A stretch of DNA of 64,000 bases, taken from NCBI GenBank assembly GCA_964485195.1, contig CAZAIK010000004.1, positions 33,673 to 97,672 on the forward strand, in the 5' to 3' direction. Below the pieces are notes generated by a model that saw only the letters and a program-made list of their open reading frames with translations, had not been told where the DNA came from and searched no databases. Every line of letters begins with the position of its first letter. The first letter of the stretch is position 1. The stretch is from an uncultured Methanosarcinales archaeon. GTDB taxonomy: Archaea; Nanobdellota; Nanobdellia; Woesearchaeales; CAIVOO01. Both the position numbers and the translations under genes were made by a program. Shown here one piece after another: positions 2,026-64,000 of the stretch.

Positions 2026-3711
2026 TTGTCGGGAATCCATTTTAATCAAAATAATAATTATTTTCTCATGGGGCACGAAACAATAAGGGACGTCAGAAAG
2101 CTTTTCCTCAACAGGGATAATATGGACGAATTCATTCGTTTAACAATCGGCGCCTTGACAGAGATGGTTAACTGGTATACCGGAATCGAGATTGAAAATA
2201 ATTTGAAGATTAATCCAGGCGATTACAAAAATGTGGGGGTGCACAATGGCTGTTCTGTTGAGGAGGCAGGCAAAAGAACAATAGAGCGGATACCGGAAGA
2301 GCTGCCAAAACAGCTGACTGAATCCTTAAACAGTGAACTTGAAGAGATAGTGAATTTCCTGAAAAACGAAATAAGGTTCAATGAGAATTTTATGGGCCAG
2401 ATGCACCCCTCCCAAAACATCGCTTCCTACGCTGCAGGAATAGCGGCTAAGTTTGTGAATGGAAATACCGTTACAGGCAGTGTTTCAAGGGCCACATCCC
2501 AGATTGAGCAAAACAGGGCAGTGCGTTGGCTTTGTGAAATTTTGGGGTATTCCCCTGAAAAAGCATCTGGCACCATTGTTTCAGGGGGGACAAAAGCAAA
2601 TTTAACAGCCCTGGTGATAGCAAGGAACCGTGCATTGTTCCATCTTCAGGAAATAAACAACGAACCGTTTGAGCAGTACCTGTTAACACCTGAGCAAATC
2701 CTGGATTTTAGCGAAAAAAGCTCTGCAATTATGGAAAACCACGGGGTTGCTAAAGTGGGAATGCAGGCGGTTAAGCCAAAGTGCGTCTTATACATGCCGG
2801 AAACAGCACATTACAGCCTTGTGCAGATACCCAATTTTATCGGGTTGGGAATTTCAAATATCAGGAAAATAAAAACAGACAAGAACCACAAAATAATAAT
2901 CCACGAGCTGACAAGACAGATAGAGCTGGACAAGTCAAGGGGAAATTACATAATAGGAATTATAGGTATTGCAGGAACAACAGAGGCGGGGGCTGTGGAT
3001 GACTTGGAATCTCTTGCAGGCATTGCTGAGGCATATAATCTTCACTTTCATATCGATGCGGCACATGGGGGTCCTTTCAGGATGGTGAGGCCAAACTTGT
3101 TCAAGGGGATGGAAAGGGCGGATACTATAACAGTAGACCCTCATAAAATGCTTTATTCACATTACAATGCGGGAGCTTTGCTTGTTAAGAACAAGGAATT
3201 CCTGAACCTGCTCAAGGCAAAAGCAGGATATCTGTTTGACAATGGTGTTTTAAACATAGGTGAGAACAGGATTGCCTGCTCAATGGGGCTGGAATCAGCC
3301 CTGCAAACATATGCTTCGCTGAAAGTTTTTGGTGAGGAAGGCTTGAAAGCACTTCTGAACCACAGCTTGGAGCTCACACAGAATTTTAAGAAGGTTATAG
3401 ATGCAGACAAAGACGAGGTGGGGAGGCACATCAAGCTTGTCAATCCCGAGCCGGACCTTAACCTGCTTTGTTTCAGGTATGAGAACACGGATTTAAGCAA
3501 AGAGGAACTGGACAGAATAAACAAGGAAGCCCAGCGCAGGCTTGAAGAGGAGGGAAAGTTCTATTTTTCAAGCGACAATATGAGCTACAGGCGGGGCATT
3601 GCAGTTCTCAGGGCTGTAATGATGAATCCCTTCACTACGGATGAAATTGTAAAATCGGCCTATGAGAGAACGAAGGACCTGATGTTGGAGGTGAAGAATG
3701 AGGGATTATGA
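2026..3711 (+). CDS. Group II pyridoxal-phosphate-dependent amino-acid decarboxylase, possibly aromatic/tyrosine decarboxylase-like. Unusually long at 561 aa.
   Basis: Motifs SGGTKANLTALVIARNR, HIDAAHGGPF and TVDPHKMLYSHY (PLP-lysine). The first codon is TTG; ATG at 2068 is an alternative start. The end overlaps the TyrRS start by 14 nt. Confidence 0.75.
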   Translation: MSGIHFNQNNNYFLMGHETIRDVRKLFLNRDNMDEFIRLTIGALTEMVNWYTGIEIENNLKINPGDYKNVGVHNGCSVEEAGKRTIERIPEELPKQLTESLNSELEEIVNFLKNEIRFNENFMGQMHPSQNIASYAAGIAAKFVNGNTVTGSVSRATSQIEQNRAVRWLCEILGYSPEKASGTIVSGGTKANLTALVIARNRALFHLQEINNEPFEQYLLTPEQILDFSEKSSAIMENHGVAKVGMQAVKPKCVLYMPETAHYSLVQIPNFIGLGISNIRKIKTDKNHKIIIHELTRQIELDKSRGNYIIGIIGIAGTTEAGAVDDLESLAGIAEAYNLHFHIDAAHGGPFRMVRPNLFKGMERADTITVDPHKMLYSHYNAGALLVKNKEFLNLLKAKAGYLFDNGVLNIGENRIACSMGLESALQTYASLKVFGEEGLKALLNHSLELTQNFKKVIDADKDEVGRHIKLVNPEPDLNLLCFRYENTDLSKEELDRINKEAQRRLEEEGKFYFSSDNMSYRRGIAVLRAVMMNPFTTDEIVKSAYERTKDLMLEVKNEGL

Positions 3712-5134: not shown

Positions 5135-5868
5135 ATGAAAAAGTCAGATATTTTGATTGTAGGAACAGGAATCGCAGGAAGCCTGGCAGCTTATGAACTC
5201 CAAAAAATAGGGATAGATTATACATTAATAACTGAACAGGCAAATCCCCTCAGAAATGTCTCCAGCCTGAGCTTCGGCCATTTCAGGATTGCACGCATTG
5301 GCGAACTGGAGCAGTTTGTGAAAAGATGTGTTTTTGAGTTGGGGGAGGATGAGGAAAAAATGATGCTGGTGTATTCCAACAGCCATCTGACCTCTAGATT
5401 ACTGGGTGAGTTGGGGATGCCATTTGAAAAAAGGAGTTTTGGAGTCATCCCCACAACAAAGGGAAGGGGAGGGGCGTGCTTGTTGGCGAAACAGTCAGAA
5501 AAGGCTCGTTTGTTGATGAAAACGGAAAAGCGGTATTTGACAGGAGAACAGAGAAAATGCTGAAGCAGGATAATTACCACGAAATATTTCCTCAGATAAC
5601 AGAGCGAATCAGAACAAGGGAAAAACAAGGCCACAAGGTTTATTTTATGCAAGGGGATAATATGATTCCCATAACCCCCTATGTTCATTACACTGCGGGA
5701 GGGATTAAAACAGACAGGCTAGGCAGGGTTGAAGGGTGTGAAGACCTTTTTGCAGTGGGTGAATGCCAGGCCAACGGATTCAAAAACAACGGCAGGCTTC
5801 CTGGATATCCCTTCACATCCGCGGTTGTTTACTCAAAAATCCTGGCAGAATATTTCAGTAAGATTTAA
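5135..5868 (+). pseudogene. Frameshifted, miniature FAD-dependent oxidoreductase related to L-aspartate oxidase / succinate dehydrogenase flavoprotein.
   Basis: ORF 5135..5563 carries the N-terminal DILIVGTGIAGSLAAYEL FAD-binding site. ORF 5476..5868 in another frame carries HYTAGGI and LFAVGECQANG...NNGRLPGY. The capping domain is missing; the two pieces total about 245 aa against roughly 500 expected. Confidence 0.5.
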
Positions 5869-6037: not shown

Positions 6038-6162
6038 CCTCGCTTAGCTCAACGGCAGAGCGTTCGGCTGTAGAAAACACAAGACAAGGTCCCTTATGGG
6101 GTGAGAATGAAATGTGTTCAGCTGATACCGAAAGGTTGCCAGTTCAAATCTGGCAGCGGGGA
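6038..6162 (+). tRNA. tRNA-Tyr (anticodon GUA) with a 53-nt intron at the canonical 37/38 position (6074..6126). C1-G72 pair and A73 discriminator.
   Basis: Cloverleaf folded by hand. Acceptor CCTCGCT/AGCGGGG, D-stem GCTC/GAGC, anticodon stem TTCGG/CCGAA, loop CTGTAG|A, T-arm GCCAG-TTCAAAT-CTGGC. Confidence 0.75.
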
Positions 6163-26286: not shown

Positions 26287-26495
26287 ACATTTCTGGAACT
26301 GTAAGGTTGTAGTCGTTTAATTGTGGTAATGCTGGCACTGCGCTCCTCTGCTTCATTAATCTCTTCTAAACCCTATTTATTCGTAGTTTGAGAGGTTATA
26401 AGATAACTCCGCTCGGCAGTGACAGCGCCAACACAGAACACTTGACTTAACCATATTTGAGAAACATTTTTAAAAACAAAGCAAAAAAGGATTAC

Positions 26496-48852: not shown

Positions 48853-48942
48853 AGCCCCGTAGTCTAGCGGCCAAGGATGTCAGGCTCTGGAGACTGGTTC
48901 AGGAGAAACCTGGAGACCGCGGTTCAAATCCGCGCGGGGCTA
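48853..48942 (+). tRNA. tRNA-Gln (anticodon CUG) with A1-U72 and a 17-nt intron (48891..48907).
   Basis: Hand-folded. Acceptor AGCCCCG/CGGGGCT, D-arm GTCT-AGCGGCCAA-GGAT, anticodon stem TCAGG/CCTGG, loop CTCTGG|A, T-arm CGCGG-TTCAAAT-CCGCG, discriminator A. Confidence 0.7.
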
Positions 48943-48943
48943 C

Positions 48944-56998: not shown

Positions 56999-59425
56999 AT
57001 GGAAGTTAAGAAGGCAATTAAGAAAGTTGTTGCCTTAGGCGCTGGAGCTACCATGATGGGAGCAACCCTGATGGGAGCTGTGGCAGCAGACCTAGCAGAT
57101 TACCCTGCGCCGTTCGTAAAGAACGGACAGTTCGACGCATTCATCGTCGTGGGTGATCAGGCAGCAGCTGAAGACGTTGTCGGCGCAGTCGACATTGGCG
57201 CAAGTCTTCAGTTCGAGATGAGAGAGGAGGAGTTCGTTTCTACCGGGACTGCAAATGTTCTTGTTTCCGATGGGGTAAAAATCAAGGGAACTGGTTCTGA
57301 AGTCCTGAACTACAACGAATCCATCGGAGAAGTGAGAGACACGACTCTGGACGAGGAAGACATGCCAGTGATGTTGGCAGAAGGCCGATACTCTGAGAGC
57401 GAAGGAGCAACAGACAACGACGAGAATTATGTCCAGGAGCTTTTGCTTAACAACACAAACGGCATAACACTGCACGACCAGCCAGATGATTTGGACCACG
57501 ATGACTACCTGGAACTGCTGGATGACGGGCCAATATATGTCTACACTCTGGAGTTTGACGACCCGGTTGAGTTTGAGACATCATCATCTGTGGACGGCTC
57601 GCTAGACGACGACATAGAGGGAACGCAGATAGAGATACAAGGAAACCTGTACACCATAACAGATGTCAAGTTTGAGAACAATGCAAACCTGTCGGACATG
57701 ACATTGATGGCAGGAGACACTCTTGTATGGCTGATGCAGGACCAGGTGATTGAGAAGACAGTCAACGGCGTTAGCCACGAGATAAAGGTCGTTGACGTGA
57801 CCGACAACGAGGATTCCTGCGGAGTCTCTGTGGACGGATTCGTGGCCTGGATTGATGTTAAGTCAGACAAGACCATCAACGGAGTGAACATCGGAGTGCT
57901 TGACGCAAAAGCTGTACACGCACAGCTGCAGGACGTTGACATCTGCGAACTGAACATCGGAGCTACAGAGATAGACATAGAGAACGCTGAGGTAGATGGG
58001 TTCAACTCTTCAAATCTTGGAGGTTCTTCCATCACAGTAGACGGAATGGAGATTGACGACGCAGAAGTAGGCCTTGTAAGCGAAGGAGATGGAAAATGGG
58101 GCGGTATAATAATTGAGTTCACGCCAGACGATGACGTGTTCTTGGCAACTGACCAGGAATTCATTGACCCAGTGCTTGACAACTTCAAGTTTTTGATGGG
58201 AGGCGTGACAACACCGAGAGAGGAGATTGAACTGAAAACTTCCGGTTCAAAGGACGCAGAGCTGACCTTCATCAACAACGACGGAAAGAAAGTTGAAATC
58301 CCGCTCTATGTCAACGACGCAGAGACAGGATTCGGCCTAGGTTCTGACGACGACGAGCCATTGCTGCTTGAAGGAGACACCTTTGACTGCGGAACATCCC
58401 TGGAGGACTGTGACGGGGTGCTGTTATATGCACTGACAAGCGGAGACACCGCTCACGTGCTTGAAATAACAAACCTTGACACAGACGACACAGAGGTTGA
58501 CCTCAAGGACCTGACCTACGGAAGGAACTTCGATGACAAGAATTATTCCAGTTCAATCAGCCTGGGCTCACTGGGCTCAATAACCCTGACGGACTCTGGT
58601 TCAGGAGTAATCACCGCAACAAACCTTGACACAAACAACAACAACTACGCAGAGACCAACTACGGAGGAAATCTTACGCTTGACTCTGCAGATGCTTTGG
58701 GAGGAACTGTAGCAGCTAATGACACAGTTACTGAAGTCTTCCTGTTCACAGAAGACGATACTGACGACACAGATATTTCTGCACAGACCCTGAACGTGAC
58801 TGCGCAATACGACAGGTCGGATGACGATGAGCTTGAAATCTCACTGACCACAACAGGCGTTGTTTTCGAGCCTACAGGCGGTGTGGACGAGAGCGAAGAC
58901 AATTCCGACGTGAGGTACTACACAACCCTTCACGGAACAATTGTTGAGGTTGACGACGAGGACGACGACTACGTGACAATAATGTATCCGCAGGAAGAAG
59001 TTGAGATAAATGCTTTCATAGCACCAACATCTGCTCAGATAACATCATCTGGCGGAGACATCTCAACAATGACCCTGGACAAGATAAACGTCGGAGCAGC
59101 CAGGCTTGCATCTGAAGTGGATGTGGGAAGCGAGAACCTCATACTTGTAGGAGGGGCTTGCGCCAACGCAGCTACTGCAGAAGCTATGGACCTGCCTTTC
59201 AACGCAGCAGGATGTGAGGGCGACCTCCAGAGCGGGGAAGCAATCATAAAGCTGGTTGAGCACGACACAGGCAAGGTCTCAATGGTCGTGGCTGGTATGG
59301 ACGCAATCGACACAAGAAGGGCTACAAGGGTTGTTTCAAACTACGCTGCTTACGACCTGAGCGGAAGCGAAGCAAGAGTAACAGGAACAAGCCTGACCGA
59401 CATAAAAGTGAGCATGCCTTCATAA
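56999..59425 (+). CDS. Large, highly acidic secreted surface protein (S-layer-like).
   Basis: Signal peptide MEVKKAIKKVVALGAGATMMGATLMGAVAA. 808 aa, very D/E/T-rich. Contains the two-Cys domain shared with the 38267 protein. Long 5' UTR, strong SD and an oligo-T terminator. Confidence 0.65.
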   Translation: MEVKKAIKKVVALGAGATMMGATLMGAVAADLADYPAPFVKNGQFDAFIVVGDQAAAEDVVGAVDIGASLQFEMREEEFVSTGTANVLVSDGVKIKGTGSEVLNYNESIGEVRDTTLDEEDMPVMLAEGRYSESEGATDNDENYVQELLLNNTNGITLHDQPDDLDHDDYLELLDDGPIYVYTLEFDDPVEFETSSSVDGSLDDDIEGTQIEIQGNLYTITDVKFENNANLSDMTLMAGDTLVWLMQDQVIEKTVNGVSHEIKVVDVTDNEDSCGVSVDGFVAWIDVKSDKTINGVNIGVLDAKAVHAQLQDVDICELNIGATEIDIENAEVDGFNSSNLGGSSITVDGMEIDDAEVGLVSEGDGKWGGIIIEFTPDDDVFLATDQEFIDPVLDNFKFLMGGVTTPREEIELKTSGSKDAELTFINNDGKKVEIPLYVNDAETGFGLGSDDDEPLLLEGDTFDCGTSLEDCDGVLLYALTSGDTAHVLEITNLDTDDTEVDLKDLTYGRNFDDKNYSSSISLGSLGSITLTDSGSGVITATNLDTNNNNYAETNYGGNLTLDSADALGGTVAANDTVTEVFLFTEDDTDDTDISAQTLNVTAQYDRSDDDELEISLTTTGVVFEPTGGVDESEDNSDVRYYTTLHGTIVEVDDEDDDYVTIMYPQEEVEINAFIAPTSAQITSSGGDISTMTLDKINVGAARLASEVDVGSENLILVGGACANAATAEAMDLPFNAAGCEGDLQSGEAIIKLVEHDTGKVSMVVAGMDAIDTRRATRVVSNYAAYDLSGSEARVTGTSLTDIKVSMPS

Positions 59426-59458
59426 AGGCAGCTTATTTTTTTTCTTTTTCTTTTGTTT
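59416..59458 (+). terminator. Hairpin (GCCTT-CATA-AAGGC) followed by a T8 and T-rich tract, immediately after the surface-protein stop.
   Basis: Seen directly. Oligo-T tract of the archaeal intrinsic-terminator type. Confidence 0.45.
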
Positions 59459-59698
59459 TGAACGAGAACTAGTTTGGAATCTTTAAAAATTAAAACAATA
59501 AATATCTCCCAGTCAATTCTTAAAACTCTTATTTGTTTAATTGCTGTTGGTTTTTGTTGCCAGAATTGCAGATATATCACTGTTTATAGACAATATTATT
59601 CCATCCTGCGTGGCAATAAGAACAAAAGAGTGATAATTACTCTGTTTTAATGCAGGACTATAGCAAGATTTTTATTTTTATCAACATACCCTAAAAGA

Positions 59699-60367
59699 AT
59701 GAGTAAAAATAGAATGCCAAAAGTTCTTGTGGGATGTCCCACTTATGAAGGCAAGGCCTACTGCTTTGATGAATATGCAAGGTCTGTGCAGAACCTTGAC
59801 TATGGCAATTATGACATACTGCTGGCTGACAACTCCAAAACAGAGGAGTATTTCAATAAAACAAGAGAAAAACTGCCTGCAATTAGGGTGCAAAACTATG
59901 AAAATCCCAGGAAGACGCTTGCTGAGGCCAGGAATGCCCTCCGTAAGAAGGCCCTCGAGGGAAATTATGATTTTTTCCTCAGCCTTGAGCAGGACGTAAT
60001 CCCCCCAGAAAATGCGATTAAAAAATTAATTTCCCATAATAAGGACATTGTCACGGGGAACTATCTTGTGCCGAAGAGAATCAACAACAAGGTTTTTCCG
60101 GTCTCGCCCGTGCTGATAAAAAGGAACGGAAAATTCATCACAGCTGACAGGGGTGTTCTTGATTCTGAGAATCTGGCGGAGATAGAGGCCTGCGGGCTCG
60201 GCTGCGTTCTGATAAGCAGGAAAGTGCTTGAGAAAATAAAATTCAGGCACGAGGAAAACAGCAGAACGTGGGATGACATGTTCTTCTCAAAGGACGCAAG
60301 GCAGGCGGGCTTTCAAATATTCCTGGACCCAACGATTAAGTGCAGGCACCTCATAAAAAGAGGTTAA
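59699..60367 (+). CDS. Family 2 (GT-A) glycosyltransferase-like protein.
   Basis: GT-A N-terminal region (VLVGCPTYEGKAYCFDEYARSVQNLDYGNYDILLADNS) and a DxD-like LEQD. Confidence 0.55.
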   Translation: MSKNRMPKVLVGCPTYEGKAYCFDEYARSVQNLDYGNYDILLADNSKTEEYFNKTREKLPAIRVQNYENPRKTLAEARNALRKKALEGNYDFFLSLEQDVIPPENAIKKLISHNKDIVTGNYLVPKRINNKVFPVSPVLIKRNGKFITADRGVLDSENLAEIEACGLGCVLISRKVLEKIKFRHEENSRTWDDMFFSKDARQAGFQIFLDPTIKCRHLIKRG

Positions 60368-60463
60368 GTCAGTTAATAAGTGAAATGCTGGCACTGCGCT
60401 CCGTGCCAATGCTGATTAGGAGTTCAGTCGGTTTATTTGGAATCTCACAGCAATTATAGCAAT

Positions 60464-60661
60464 ATGAAACTTACAGTTGTCCTGGAAAGACAGGAAGAGG
60501 GAGGCTACAGTATACGTGCCTTCCTTGCCCGGATGCGTTTCGCAGGGGATACAAGAGAAAAAGCGCTTAGAAACATAAAAGAAGCAATTGAGCTGTACCT
60601 TGAGCCTGATACCAGCGAAATTCTGGAGTATAGCGGAGAGAAGGTTAAAGTCGCTATATGA
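60464..60661 (+). CDS. hicB: HicB-family antitoxin (UPF0150).
   Basis: MKLTVVLERQEEGGYSIRAFLARMRFAGDTREKALRNIKEAIELYLE matches the HicB pattern. Confidence 0.7.
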   Translation: MKLTVVLERQEEGGYSIRAFLARMRFAGDTREKALRNIKEAIELYLEPDTSEILEYSGEKVKVAI

Positions 60662-60663
60662 AG

Positions 60664-60892
60664 ATGCTCACTTTCTGGACTTGAACTTATTAAACACCTG
60701 GAAAAATTTGATTTTGTGGCTACAAGGAGAAAAGGCTCTCACGTGAGACTTGAAGAGTATAATAGCACAGCTAAAAAGACGATAAAAATAACTGTTCCGC
60801 TTCACAAGAACCTGAAAAAAGGGACCCTCATCAGGATGATTAAAAGCGCTGGCTTAACACTTAAAGGTTTTGAAAAGTTAAAGAATTCATAG
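60664..60892 (+). pseudogene. hicA: HicA-family mRNA interferase toxin gene with an early +1 frameshift. No in-frame start for the conserved reading frame.
   Basis: The frame beginning at 60668 encodes SLSGLELIKHLEKFDFVATRRKGSHVRLEEYNSTAKKTIKITVPLHKNLKKGTLIRMIKSAGL, the HicA GSH motif. The ATG at 60664 is in another frame and reaches TGA after 6 codons. Confidence 0.6.
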
Positions 60893-62104
60893 GCATTTTC
60901 CTGCGAAGCAGTTGTGCTTGTCCCTCACCAGCTTTATCCTTGCTTCGCTTCCAGCACTTTTGGCACAGCCAAACGCATTAATGCTTCTCTCGTCAGAAGC
61001 TGCTATTTTCTCGTTTCCATACATCCCCTCGCACATTAATTCAGCCTTTATTGCCTGGCCCTTCCTGAAGGGCTTTGGAAGCGTCTTTGACTTGTGAATC
61101 CCGAAATCCCCTGCTTTCAGCACCAGTTTCGTGTTGTACTTCTCTTCCAGCTTTCGCAGCTTTTTGTAAAACTCATTCCAGGACATCTGTTTTGCGGGCT
61201 TTCTTCCGTGCTCGTATTCCAGGAAATTCTGTATTCCCACCTTAATCCTGCTTTTCTTGCAGGCCTTTATTGCAAACTGTACCAGTTTCTCAATCTCCCC
61301 GTCATTAAGTCCGGGAACCCAGACAGGAGCTATGAGCATATCTGACTTTTTTCCCACATACCTGATTATTTTCTTGACGTGCTCCAGGTCGTAGGGAAAA
61401 TTTGCCATCTTCCCCGCAGTTTGCTCGTTGAGGGCGTCAAGGGAAATGTTAAACCTGGTCAGGCCCGCATCCATCAGCTCGTCAGCCATTTTTTCAGTCA
61501 GGAGCGTTGCGTTGGTGTCCATTGATATTGCACCCACATTCGCCATCCCCGCGATTTCCCTGACCAGCTCATTAAGCTCAGGGTAAAGCAGGGGCTCCCC
61601 GTGGGTTCCAATATGGCAGTTCCACCTTTCCCCTATGAAGCCCGCCAGCTTTTTTATCTCCTCAACCAGATAATCCCTCTCGATAAGAAAGTCAGTCTTT
61701 TTGCCAGAGCCGGCGCCTTCGTCAATGGAGCAGTAAACACAGTTCAGGTTGCATCCTGTCACGGGCTTAACCTCTATGACATTTGTGTTCCTGTAGATTA
61801 TCCCGAAGGCCGTGTTGCCTATGAGGGGAATGCCTGAATTCCTGTGTATGTACACTGTTTTTTTCTTTGTAACAGCATTTGTCAGGCTTCCCATATGCTT
61901 TTCAACAAGAAAATTGAATTTCCTTTCAGCCCGTTGCCGCGGAATGTTCTTGAAAACAATGCTGTTTTCATTTGCCTTAAAATCACCTATCCTCTCAACC
62001 TCCTCCCTTGGTATTTTCAGGTAATAATTCCTCAGAAACAGGACTTTCAGCGCGTTCTCCTCCTCCAGAAATCCCAATTGCTCGTATTCCAGCCTGGCAT
62101 TCAT
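60887..62104 (-). CDS. Radical SAM enzyme with an N-terminal extension of about 115 aa and a C-terminal 4-Cys cluster.
   Basis: VTGCNLNCVYCS is a CX3CX2C motif at about residue 117; GTHGEPLLYPE follows; C-terminal Cys at CEGMYG, FGCAKS and HNCFAGKC. Confidence 0.65.
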   Translation of the reverse strand: MNARLEYEQLGFLEEENALKVLFLRNYYLKIPREEVERIGDFKANENSIVFKNIPRQRAERKFNFLVEKHMGSLTNAVTKKKTVYIHRNSGIPLIGNTAFGIIYRNTNVIEVKPVTGCNLNCVYCSIDEGAGSGKKTDFLIERDYLVEEIKKLAGFIGERWNCHIGTHGEPLLYPELNELVREIAGMANVGAISMDTNATLLTEKMADELMDAGLTRFNISLDALNEQTAGKMANFPYDLEHVKKIIRYVGKKSDMLIAPVWVPGLNDGEIEKLVQFAIKACKKSRIKVGIQNFLEYEHGRKPAKQMSWNEFYKKLRKLEEKYNTKLVLKAGDFGIHKSKTLPKPFRKGQAIKAELMCEGMYGNEKIAASDERSINAFGCAKSAGSEARIKLVRDKHNCFAGKCL

Positions 62105-62165
62105 TTTATAAACTGCTATTCAAAAACTATTTAAATCCTGTTGTTTTTGCCTGAGCCGGGGGAAA

Positions 62166-62852
62166 ATGGAAAACGAAGTTGTAATAACCTACGAAACCCT
62201 CTTTGAAATCCTGCGAAGGGAGAAGTCCCGCGAGGAACTTCAGGAACTGCCGGAAAATTTTGAAGAGGAAGTCAAAAAATATTTGGAAGAGAAAAAGCAG
62301 TCATTATTCCCTGATTCTGATGACAAATTCTCAGAGCTTGAGCAGGAAAAAACCAGGAAGCAGATCCTCAACATCAAAAAAATCCTCAATGATGTTTATG
62401 AAAGAAGGGAAAAGAAGATTGCAAACATAGCCCTGAGCAAGAGCAGGATTCCCAAGAGCGTGATTGACATTTCCAGGCTGACGGATAAGGAAAAAAAGCT
62501 TTATGAGGAGCTTCTGGCTGTATTGAACAGCGCAAGGCAGGACACTTTAAGCAATGTTCTTCTTGAAAATTCAAACATTTCCGGGAAGCAGGAACAGGCT
62601 GAAGAGAGGCAGCAAGAAACCGGGCCTGAAAAGGAAGAAACACAGCCCCAGGAAGGGCAAAAGGCCTCGTTCAGGACAGCTGAAAGCGAGACAAAAACAG
62701 TCAGGTTCAAGTGCGACGTTTCCCAGTTTGTGGGGCCAAATCTTGAGATTTACGGGCCTTTCAAGTCAGAAGAAACAGCAGTCCTGCCCCTGAAGGTGTG
62801 CAATGTGCTCATTAACAAGGAAAAGGCAGAATTTGAGGATTCTGAGGAGTAA
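62166..62852 (+). CDS. GINS subunit (Gins15/Gins51-like), DNA replication.
   Basis: N-terminal A-domain pattern TYETLFEILRREKSREELQELPENFEEEVKKYL. C-terminal B-domain-like VRFKCDVSQFVGPNLEIYGPFKSEETAVLP. Confidence 0.55.
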   Translation: MENEVVITYETLFEILRREKSREELQELPENFEEEVKKYLEEKKQSLFPDSDDKFSELEQEKTRKQILNIKKILNDVYERREKKIANIALSKSRIPKSVIDISRLTDKEKKLYEELLAVLNSARQDTLSNVLLENSNISGKQEQAEERQQETGPEKEETQPQEGQKASFRTAESETKTVRFKCDVSQFVGPNLEIYGPFKSEETAVLPLKVCNVLINKEKAEFEDSEE

Positions 62853-62883
62853 ACTTTTTAAATAAGTCTCTTACACCTCTTAT

Positions 62884-63198
62884 ATGGCAAAATACCCAAA
62901 ATTAGTCAAGAGGCTCTGCCCTCACTGCAAAAAGCACGCAGAGCACAAGGTAACCCAGTCCAAGAAAAGGACTAGAGGCACTGCCAACCCTCTCGCCTGG
63001 GGCTCCAGGATAAGAATCAAGAGAAGGGGTAGGGCGAGGGGCCACGGCAACACAGGAAAGTACAGCAAGCCCGCAAACCCAAAAATGACCGGCAAGAAGC
63101 AGTCAAAAAAGACAGATTTCAGGTACGAGTGCAAGGAGTGCAGCAAGCAGCACGCGCAGGGCAAGGGATTCAGGGCAAAAAAAATAGAGATGGTGTAA
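62884..63198 (+). CDS. Ribosomal protein L44e.
   Basis: [12 protein letters not shown] ... GyGN ... CKECSK zinc-ribbon pattern. Confidence 0.85.
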
Positions 63199-63199
63199 A

Positions 63200-63379
63200 A
63201 TGAAAAAACAGGCTTCCAGCAAGTTCATAAAGGTCAAATGCTCAAAGTGCAAGAATGAGCAGATAATATTCGGAAAGATATCCTCAAATGTCAAATGCCT
63301 GGTTTGCGAGAAAATGCTAGCAGAACCCACCGGAGGCAAGGCCAAGATAAAGGCAAGGATTCTGGAAGTGCTGGAATAA
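63200..63379 (+). CDS. Ribosomal protein S27e (59 aa, absent from the ORF track).
   Basis: Manual translation [59 protein letters not shown], a C4 zinc finger. Confidence 0.8.
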
Positions 63380-63384
63380 TCACG

Positions 63385-64000
63385 ATGCTTCTTAAAAGAA
63401 AAGGATGGCCTGAGGAAGGCGAACTGGCGATATGCACAGTCACAAAGATAACAGGCAACTGCGTGTTTGTGAATCTTGACGAGTACAACAAGTCAGGAAT
63501 GATTCACATTTCTGAAGTAAGCCCCGGAAGGATAAGAAACCTGAGGGATTTCGTGAAGGAAGGAAGGGTTGTGATATGCAAGATCCTTAAGATAGACGAG
63601 CAAAAGGGGCACATAGACCTCTCTCTCAGAAGGGTTTCTGAGAGCATGAGAAGAAAGAAGAATGAGGAGATAAAGCAGGAGCAGAAGGCAGAGAAGATTG
63701 TTGAGATGGTCGCGCACAACCTGAAAGTTGATGCCAGGAAGCTTTACGAGGCAGTCGCTCCCAAGATTCTTGAGAAATACGACTTCCTGTATAATGCATT
63801 TGAGGATGTTGCGCTTAAAGGCGGCTCCCTGGCGGACCTGGGAGTGGACAAGAAATACGCAAAGGCCCTTGACGAGGCAGTGAAGCAGAAAATCACGCCG
63901 CCGGAAGTGTCAATAACAGGAACCTTCACGCTCTTAACATACGCTCCCGACGGCGTACGAGTCATAAAGACAGCGCTGAAGCCAGCAGAGGAAAAAGAAG
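63385..64000 (+). CDS. Translation initiation factor aIF-2 alpha subunit (partial; 3' end beyond the window).
   Basis: Manual translation MLLKRKGWPEEGELAICTVTKITGNCVFVNLDEYNKSGMIHISEVSPGRIRNLRDFVKEGRVVICKIL (S1 domain). Sits in the conserved L44e, S27e, aIF2alpha operon. Confidence 0.85.
   Translation, partial: MLLKRKGWPEEGELAICTVTKITGNCVFVNLDEYNKSGMIHISEVSPGRIRNLRDFVKEGRVVICKILKIDEQKGHIDLSLRRVSESMRRKKNEEIKQEQKAEKIVEMVAHNLKVDARKLYEAVAPKILEKYDFLYNAFEDVALKGGSLADLGVDKKYAKALDEAVKQKITPPEVSITGTFTLLTYAPDGVRVIKTALKPAEEKE

Follow-up and report, generated by a model that had tools for sequence, protein, structure and literature searches.

The locus at positions 60464-60892 of the stretch of archaeal DNA analysed here (64,000 nt, hereafter the window) is very probably a genuine, recently decayed Class 2 hicBA type II toxin-antitoxin cassette in a DPANN-like genome, with both of its genes dead. 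The locus consists of hicB, encoding a small HicB without a DNA-binding domain, followed by hicA, which is the architecture of Class 2 hicBA. Its relatives are pairs of a 66-aa HicB and a 74-aa HicA from Woesearchaeota and other DPANN archaea, and comparison with intact relatives revealed three frame-breaking indels in the window module within ~170 bp. The hicB-hicA pair proposed in a preliminary description of this DNA was borne out by profile searches, in which the translation of the HicA frame (60662-60889) matched PF07927 with 53.5 bits (cut-off 27; E = 2.6e-14; profile positions 3-58 of 58) and a frame-repaired HicB matched PF15919 with 45.4 bits. The same description offered two alternatives, an inactivated toxin with an orphan antitoxin or a sequencing indel, and inactivation is the better of the two. 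The toxin gene is indeed inactivated, but the antitoxin is not an orphan: because hicB is also scrambled, both genes are pseudogenised.

Intact HicA is an RNase with a dsRBD fold, and HicB neutralises HicA through direct binding; in DPANN archaea, hicBA cassettes are mobile and occur very frequently. The HicA fold has been described as an alpha-beta-beta-beta-alpha dsRBD (PMC10865869), and the toxicity of Burkholderia pseudomallei HicA, likewise dsRBD-like in fold, requires Gly22 and His24 (PMC3969222). Class 2 hicBA comprises a small HicB (63-103 codons, no DNA-binding domain) encoded upstream of hicA, and Class 1 or Class 2 is the usual form of hicBA in archaea (PMC10865869, Gerdes 2024). 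We read and translated the region in all three forward frames. As expected of Class 2, a small hicB of 65 codons (66 when repaired) with no further domain lies directly upstream of hicA, although DNA alignment revealed that both reading frames are disrupted. A candidate archaeal TATA-like box, GTTTATTTGG, was read from the sequence at 60431-60440 on the plus strand, ~24-33 nt upstream of the hicB ATG, and TTTATATA is found at the same distance upstream of hicB in two intact relatives (L002 and L004). Rfam detected no structured RNA in 60300-60950, even at E <= 1, and a tblastn search identified no hicA or hicB paralogue within the window that could complement the module in trans.

The hicB open reading frame (ORF), at 60464-60661 on the plus strand, is open for 65 codons from ATG 60464 to TGA 60659-60661, and the preliminary description had called it intact. 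Protein and DNA alignments, together with the PF15919 profile, instead revealed a pseudogene with a compensated double frameshift. In a codon-level MAFFT alignment of the window with three intact relatives, the first indel is a 2-nt deletion between T60506 and A60507 (GGAGGCT--ACAGTATACGTG), so that the Tyr/Phe codon of GG(Y/F)T keeps only its first base. The second is a 1-nt deletion in a Gly codon, at the GGGG run of 60545-60548 (CAGGG-GAT in the alignment, CAG GGT GAT in the relatives), and it brings the original frame back. Since the two deletions sum to -3 nt, the ORF stays open with 65 rather than 66 codons, while the 12 codons 17-28 are read in a different frame from that of the family. 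Frame translations located the ancestral codons, T-VYVPSLPGCVSQ-G, in what is now the +1 frame at 60507-60547 on the plus strand, where the hicB ORF reads SIRAFLARMRFAG. At 60510-60548, the +1 frame spells out the motif VYVPSLPGCVSQG, a hallmark of small HicB antitoxins; likewise, the HicB beta2-turn motif (T)VYVPSLPGCxSQG is missing from the ORF and present only in the +1 frame.

This displacement is reflected in the profile scores. Against the Pfam models for small HicB (PF15919 and PF21748; curated cut-off 27 bits), the 65-aa protein as read reached only 15.3 bits with PF15919 and aligned over residues 26-48 alone, compared with the above-threshold 45.4 bits of the repaired HicB, in which the scrambled codons of the ORF were taken from the +1 frame. 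A search with the repaired HicB retrieved more than 5,500 relatives, the best of which were 82-83% identical over 100% of the length and exactly 66 aa long. In an alignment with 16 HicB relatives, the mean column identity of the family was 82% and the consensus TVYVPSLPGCISQG was nearly invariant; the +1-frame segment fits this consensus, whereas the as-read segment does not. Outside the scrambled stretch, hicB keeps the consensus at every invariant column, so that family similarity is found at both ends of the ORF. The as-read protein is a singleton, the sole member of its 90% cluster among ~15 billion proteins, and its occurrences are confined to this contig in NCBI (102,833 bp) and to Logan. 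The comparison with related hicAB loci that the preliminary description had recommended thus showed the frameshift in hicA but contradicted the intactness of hicB, which hides two indels.

The true start of hicA was placed by comparison of the hicB-hicA junction with that of L001, L002, L004, L014, L016 and L019. It is ATG 60658, contained in ATATGA at 60656-60661, where it overlaps the hicB stop codon (ATGA); from here the plus strand encodes a stub of 8 codons, MKMLTFWT, that ends at TGA 60682-60684 (60658-60684 overall). A second ATG, at 60664, lies in the same frame as ATG 60658. The preliminary description had correctly noted that ATG 60664 belongs to a frame other than that of HicA and is followed by a stop after six codons (we place this stop at TGA 60682-60684), but it took this codon for the only ATG and missed the one at 60658. 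Its suggestion of a frameshift within the first 10 codons of hicA proved accurate, and we located the lesion at codon 5, at ~60671. In the DNA alignment it appears as a 2-nt deletion relative to intact relatives, at 60671-60672 on the plus strand (ATGAAGATGCTCAC--TTTCTGG); equivalently, it can be described as one missing codon plus an extra base, C60671. Deletion of C60671 yields a full-length HicA of 77 aa, MKMLISGLELIK..., and in this protein (MKMLISGLELIKHLEK...) the residues LISG fit the family N-terminus MKLPLISG.

Downstream of the frameshift, the body of the HicA domain (SGLELIKHLEK...KGSHVRLEE...TVPLHKNLKKGTL...) matches PF07927 at 60674-60892 on the plus strand, shares the hicB reading frame, has no usable start and terminates at TAG 60890-60892. 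The absence of a start codon from the conserved HicA frame, as initially described, was confirmed: no ATG, GTG or TTG occurs from TGA 60659-60661 until GTG 60716. Starting at GTG 60716 would remove helix alpha1, and the locus holds no complete, start-initiated HicA ORF. A search with the HicA frame returned 120 relatives, the best of which were 74 aa long and 62-69% identical, and several of these best relatives are annotated as HicA of Candidatus Woesearchaeota, Pacearchaeota or Nanoarchaeota. The Gly-Ser-His motif is kept as KGSHV, with G25, S26 and H27 in invariant or nearly invariant columns. Three substitutions, G17D, K32E and I59M, are peculiar to the window and fall at columns that do not vary among 15 relatives; compared with its relatives, the window HicA also has two codons inserted internally and extends two codons further at the C-terminus. 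As the frame extends two codons (Asn-Ser) beyond the stop of the relatives, there is no intergenic space for a terminator. The 3' ends of the HicA frame and the convergent radical SAM gene share 6 nt (60887-60892).

We recovered seven distinct intact pairs, in which a hicB of 66-69 aa is directly upstream of a hicA of 74-75 aa. The 4-nt ATGA overlap is present in six of the seven, and in the remaining pair (L018) the genes abut without overlap. The pairs occupy at least seven different genomic contexts, and such a different neighbourhood for each pair is as expected for a mobile cassette. A second HicA-domain gene was observed at 2330-2388 (minus strand) of L018, ~1.2 kb from its intact hicBA pair, which indicates that such archaeal genomes can carry several nearby copies of hicA. 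The Class 2 hicBA loci of Woesearchaeota and other DPANN archaea, for example L001 (GCA_016185875.1 JACPMS010000065.1) and L004 (GCA_018303655.1 JAGVXT010000012.1), have the same gene order as the window and share with it the ATGA overlap and a small HicB without a DNA-binding domain (66 aa in its repaired form), whereas the window alone has three frame-breaking indels, the insertion and extension in HicA and the three unique substitutions. Classical bacterial HicAB, as in E. coli K-12 and Burkholderia pseudomallei (PMC3969222), has the PF07927 HicA domain and the Gly-Ser-His motif in common with the window. By contrast, hicA precedes hicB in these systems and HicB bears a C-terminal HTH or RHH domain (Classes 3/4), while the window has the reverse order and a bare toxin-binding HicB.

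The module is flanked, as reported previously, by a radical SAM gene and a copy of a repeated element. The radical SAM gene occupies 60887-62104 on the minus strand, and its stop codon is overlapped by the TAG of the HicA frame. The nearest genome found through this gene was L012 (68% identity), in which an S-layer-like gene adjoins the radical SAM gene directly, with neither hicBA nor a glycosyltransferase. Homology between the window and L012 ends at ~59453 and resumes at ~60896, and the glycosyltransferase gene and hicBA of the window (~1.4 kb) replace a ~255-bp spacer of L012. In the more distant L013, the glycosyltransferase adjoins the radical SAM gene without hicBA. The absence of hicBA from the syntenic site in both L012 and L013 suggests that the cassette is a lineage-specific acquisition. 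In the window, a gene for a 222-aa Anp1/GT2-like glycosyltransferase lies at 59699-60367; with this gene and hicBA both missing in L012 and the glycosyltransferase present in L013, the interval that separates the S-layer and radical SAM genes (~59454-60895 in the window, compared with 6216-6492 in L012) appears to be variable.

The repeat beside the module is a 36-nt copy at 60367-60402 (plus strand) and forms a direct repeat with 26311-26346; the two copies are 81% identical and have an exact core of 19 nt in common, AATGCTGGCACTGCGCTCC. Exactly two copies of the core occur in the window, against 0.03 expected by chance. Each copy of the 36-nt repeat coincides with the stop codon of a gene on the plus strand or follows it closely; the repeat has no Rfam match, and the first copy does not preserve the hairpin seen in the second. 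We rejected the interpretation of the two copies as att sites of an integrated element, because the 34 kb between them contains core genes, including those for ribosomal proteins S24e and S27a, and a tRNA.

We then considered whether the hicBA of the organism might be intact and the three indels mere sequencing or assembly errors in the contig, and we regard this as unlikely. A single-base correction, the deletion of C60671, does restore an ATG-initiated, full-length HicA, an outcome that the preliminary description had held to speak against an inactivated toxin; furthermore, one hicB indel is inside the G homopolymer at 60545-60548, and a contig from SRR7048218 begins at 60709, inside hicA, a break that could reflect low coverage or heterogeneity. 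However, the one-base correction does not make sequencing error likelier, because hicB contains two further indels, 125-165 bp upstream of the hicA frameshift, two of the three indels appear in the alignment as losses of 2 nt in non-homopolymer sequence, an independent assembly is identical, and such clustering has a low probability. The single-run Logan assembly SRR7048220_8196, the product of an independent assembler, matches the window over 57834-64000 with one substitution (62689) and no gaps, and it therefore carries all three indels; since this contig may share the sample of the window, the match rules out artefacts of the assembler or of polishing but would not expose a systematic error in the reads. 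Long ORFs, including ones of 808, 872 and 630 codons, cover ~90% of the window, and a window-wide survey of frame breaks yielded one other disrupted-gene candidate, at 5135-5868. Under a Poisson model that assumes 1-10 background frame-breaking indels across the remaining 63.6 kb, the probability of at least three indels in 429 bp is 5e-8 to 5e-5, and the clustering of three indels in a window otherwise nearly free of frame breaks makes random sequencing error improbable. The HicA body also shows decay that does not involve indels, namely its unique substitutions at three invariant columns. Exact-pattern scans of JGI metagenome contigs, including a pattern tolerant of indel length at both hicB sites, detected no alternative or intact allele of the exact locus, and the protein search with the repaired HicB likewise returned no such intact allele and no relative above 83% identity.

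A second group of explanations accepts the indels as real and assigns a function to what is left. It is quite improbable that the locus is a functional remnant, in which the 65-aa HicB variant is still produced and kept (say, to counter incoming hicBA elements as an anti-addiction or decoy antitoxin) or in which a 58-aa HicA is initiated at GTG 60716. The compensating indel keeps the hicB ORF open, its N- and C-terminal parts follow the family consensus, the candidate TATA-like box is retained, and the truncated HicA still scores 37.8 bits with the GSH motif kept. On the other hand, the scrambled segment is the most conserved of the family, the as-read HicB falls below the Pfam cut-off, and the variant is a singleton without conserved relatives. 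A compensating pair would be expected in approximately one-third of random double indels, and a 12-codon out-of-frame stretch would be free of stop codons by chance about half the time. The 58-aa HicA fragment lacks helix alpha1 of the dsRBD fold (PMC10865869), and no source searched contains a protein record of it. The narrower proposal that the double frameshift of hicB was itself selected, giving an expressed 65-aa protein with a new 12-residue segment that could act as an anti-addiction or decoy protein against related hicBA after loss of the toxin, appears highly unlikely to us. Recoding, either by programmed +1 frameshifting from ATG 60658 or by read-through of TGA 60659-60661 into a HicB-HicA fusion like that of Class 12, is hardly credible and was rejected, together with an alternative genetic code, on the basis of TGA usage and the lack of fused relatives. 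Fused HicB-HicA proteins, with a small HicB domain and HicA in a single ORF, do exist as Class 12 (PMC10865869), and the hicB ORF and HicA body of the window similarly share one frame, with only the TGA and two codons between them. In contrast to Class 12, a stop codon intervenes in the window and the HicB part is itself scrambled. TGA terminates 18 of the 53 window ORFs of at least 150 aa and is thus a normal stop here, no fusion was found among the close HicA and HicB relatives (listed lengths 54-80 aa and 65-92 aa), neither a slippery nor a prfB-like motif occurs, and a shift after 60672 would drop the invariant Ser-Gly. Given that native hicA lies one base out of the hicB frame and has itself been frameshifted, the shared frame is an arithmetic by-product.

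Genuine decay of both genes, the reading we favour, can be outlined as follows. In its intact form, the cassette would have been expressed from a leaderless or short-leader bicistronic mRNA, with the ATGA stop/start overlap suggesting that translation of hicA was coupled to that of hicB. Its products would have been a toxin-binding HicB of 66 aa, with a partial RNase-H-like fold and no DNA-binding domain, and a HicA of 74-77 aa, a putative ribosome-independent RNase with the dsRBD fold and a Gly-x-His site. The frameshift at codon 5 has killed the toxin gene, with translation from ATG 60658 predicted to end after 8 codons, and the two compensating deletions have scrambled 12 codons of the antitoxin gene, including the P-x-LPGC-SQG motif. 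Judging from sequence, neither product is expected to function, and the locus is then a pseudogene pair heading for deletion. A defective 65-aa HicB protein may still be made, given the open ORF and the TATA-like box, and the second, compensating indel could be a trace of earlier selection for retention of the C-terminal half of HicB.

With regard to the order of loss, our data weakly suggest that the toxin was lost first and the antitoxin afterwards. Loss of the antitoxin beside an active toxin would be counter-selected; in addition, further substitutions have hit invariant positions of hicA, whereas hicB still follows the consensus outside the scramble. The identity of HicB exceeds that of HicA by a mean of 11 points in the window pairs versus 3 in the intact pairs, among which the maximum is 18. 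The excess divergence of HicA is thus within the range of intact pairs, and the toxin-first order is weakly supported for this reason.

The other disrupted-gene candidate of the survey comprises two overlapping plus-strand ORFs in different frames, 5135-5563 and 5476-5868. They match the two ends of one FAD-dependent oxidoreductase (DAO 1-122; FAD_binding_2 1-74 and 337-411 of 414), and 5135-5868 probably represents another pseudogene, frameshifted and with part of its interior deleted. The ORF pairs 26457/26933 and 51768/52215 were also inspected as possible broken genes and proved to be separate genes (RDD/S49 peptidase and S24e/S27a, respectively). Two tRNA genes of the window gave unusual calls. 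Rfam identified a 125-nt tRNA at 6038-6162 (plus strand) that was missed by ARAGORN, presumably because it contains an intron, and the tRNA called by ARAGORN at 48853-48943 (plus strand) has an uninterpretable 4-base anticodon, which suggests that it also contains an intron.

Annotation of the module should mark both genes as pseudogenes rather than record hicB as an antitoxin beside an unannotated gap. The locus also calls for caution, as a compensated frameshift can hide in an ORF that is open and resembles its family at either end, and is revealed only through comparison of the alternative frames with relatives. A decayed toxin-antitoxin insertion of this sort is of an ordinary kind, and its importance is small beyond correct annotation; it provides one further snapshot of the decay of chromosomal toxin-antitoxin insertions in small archaeal genomes.
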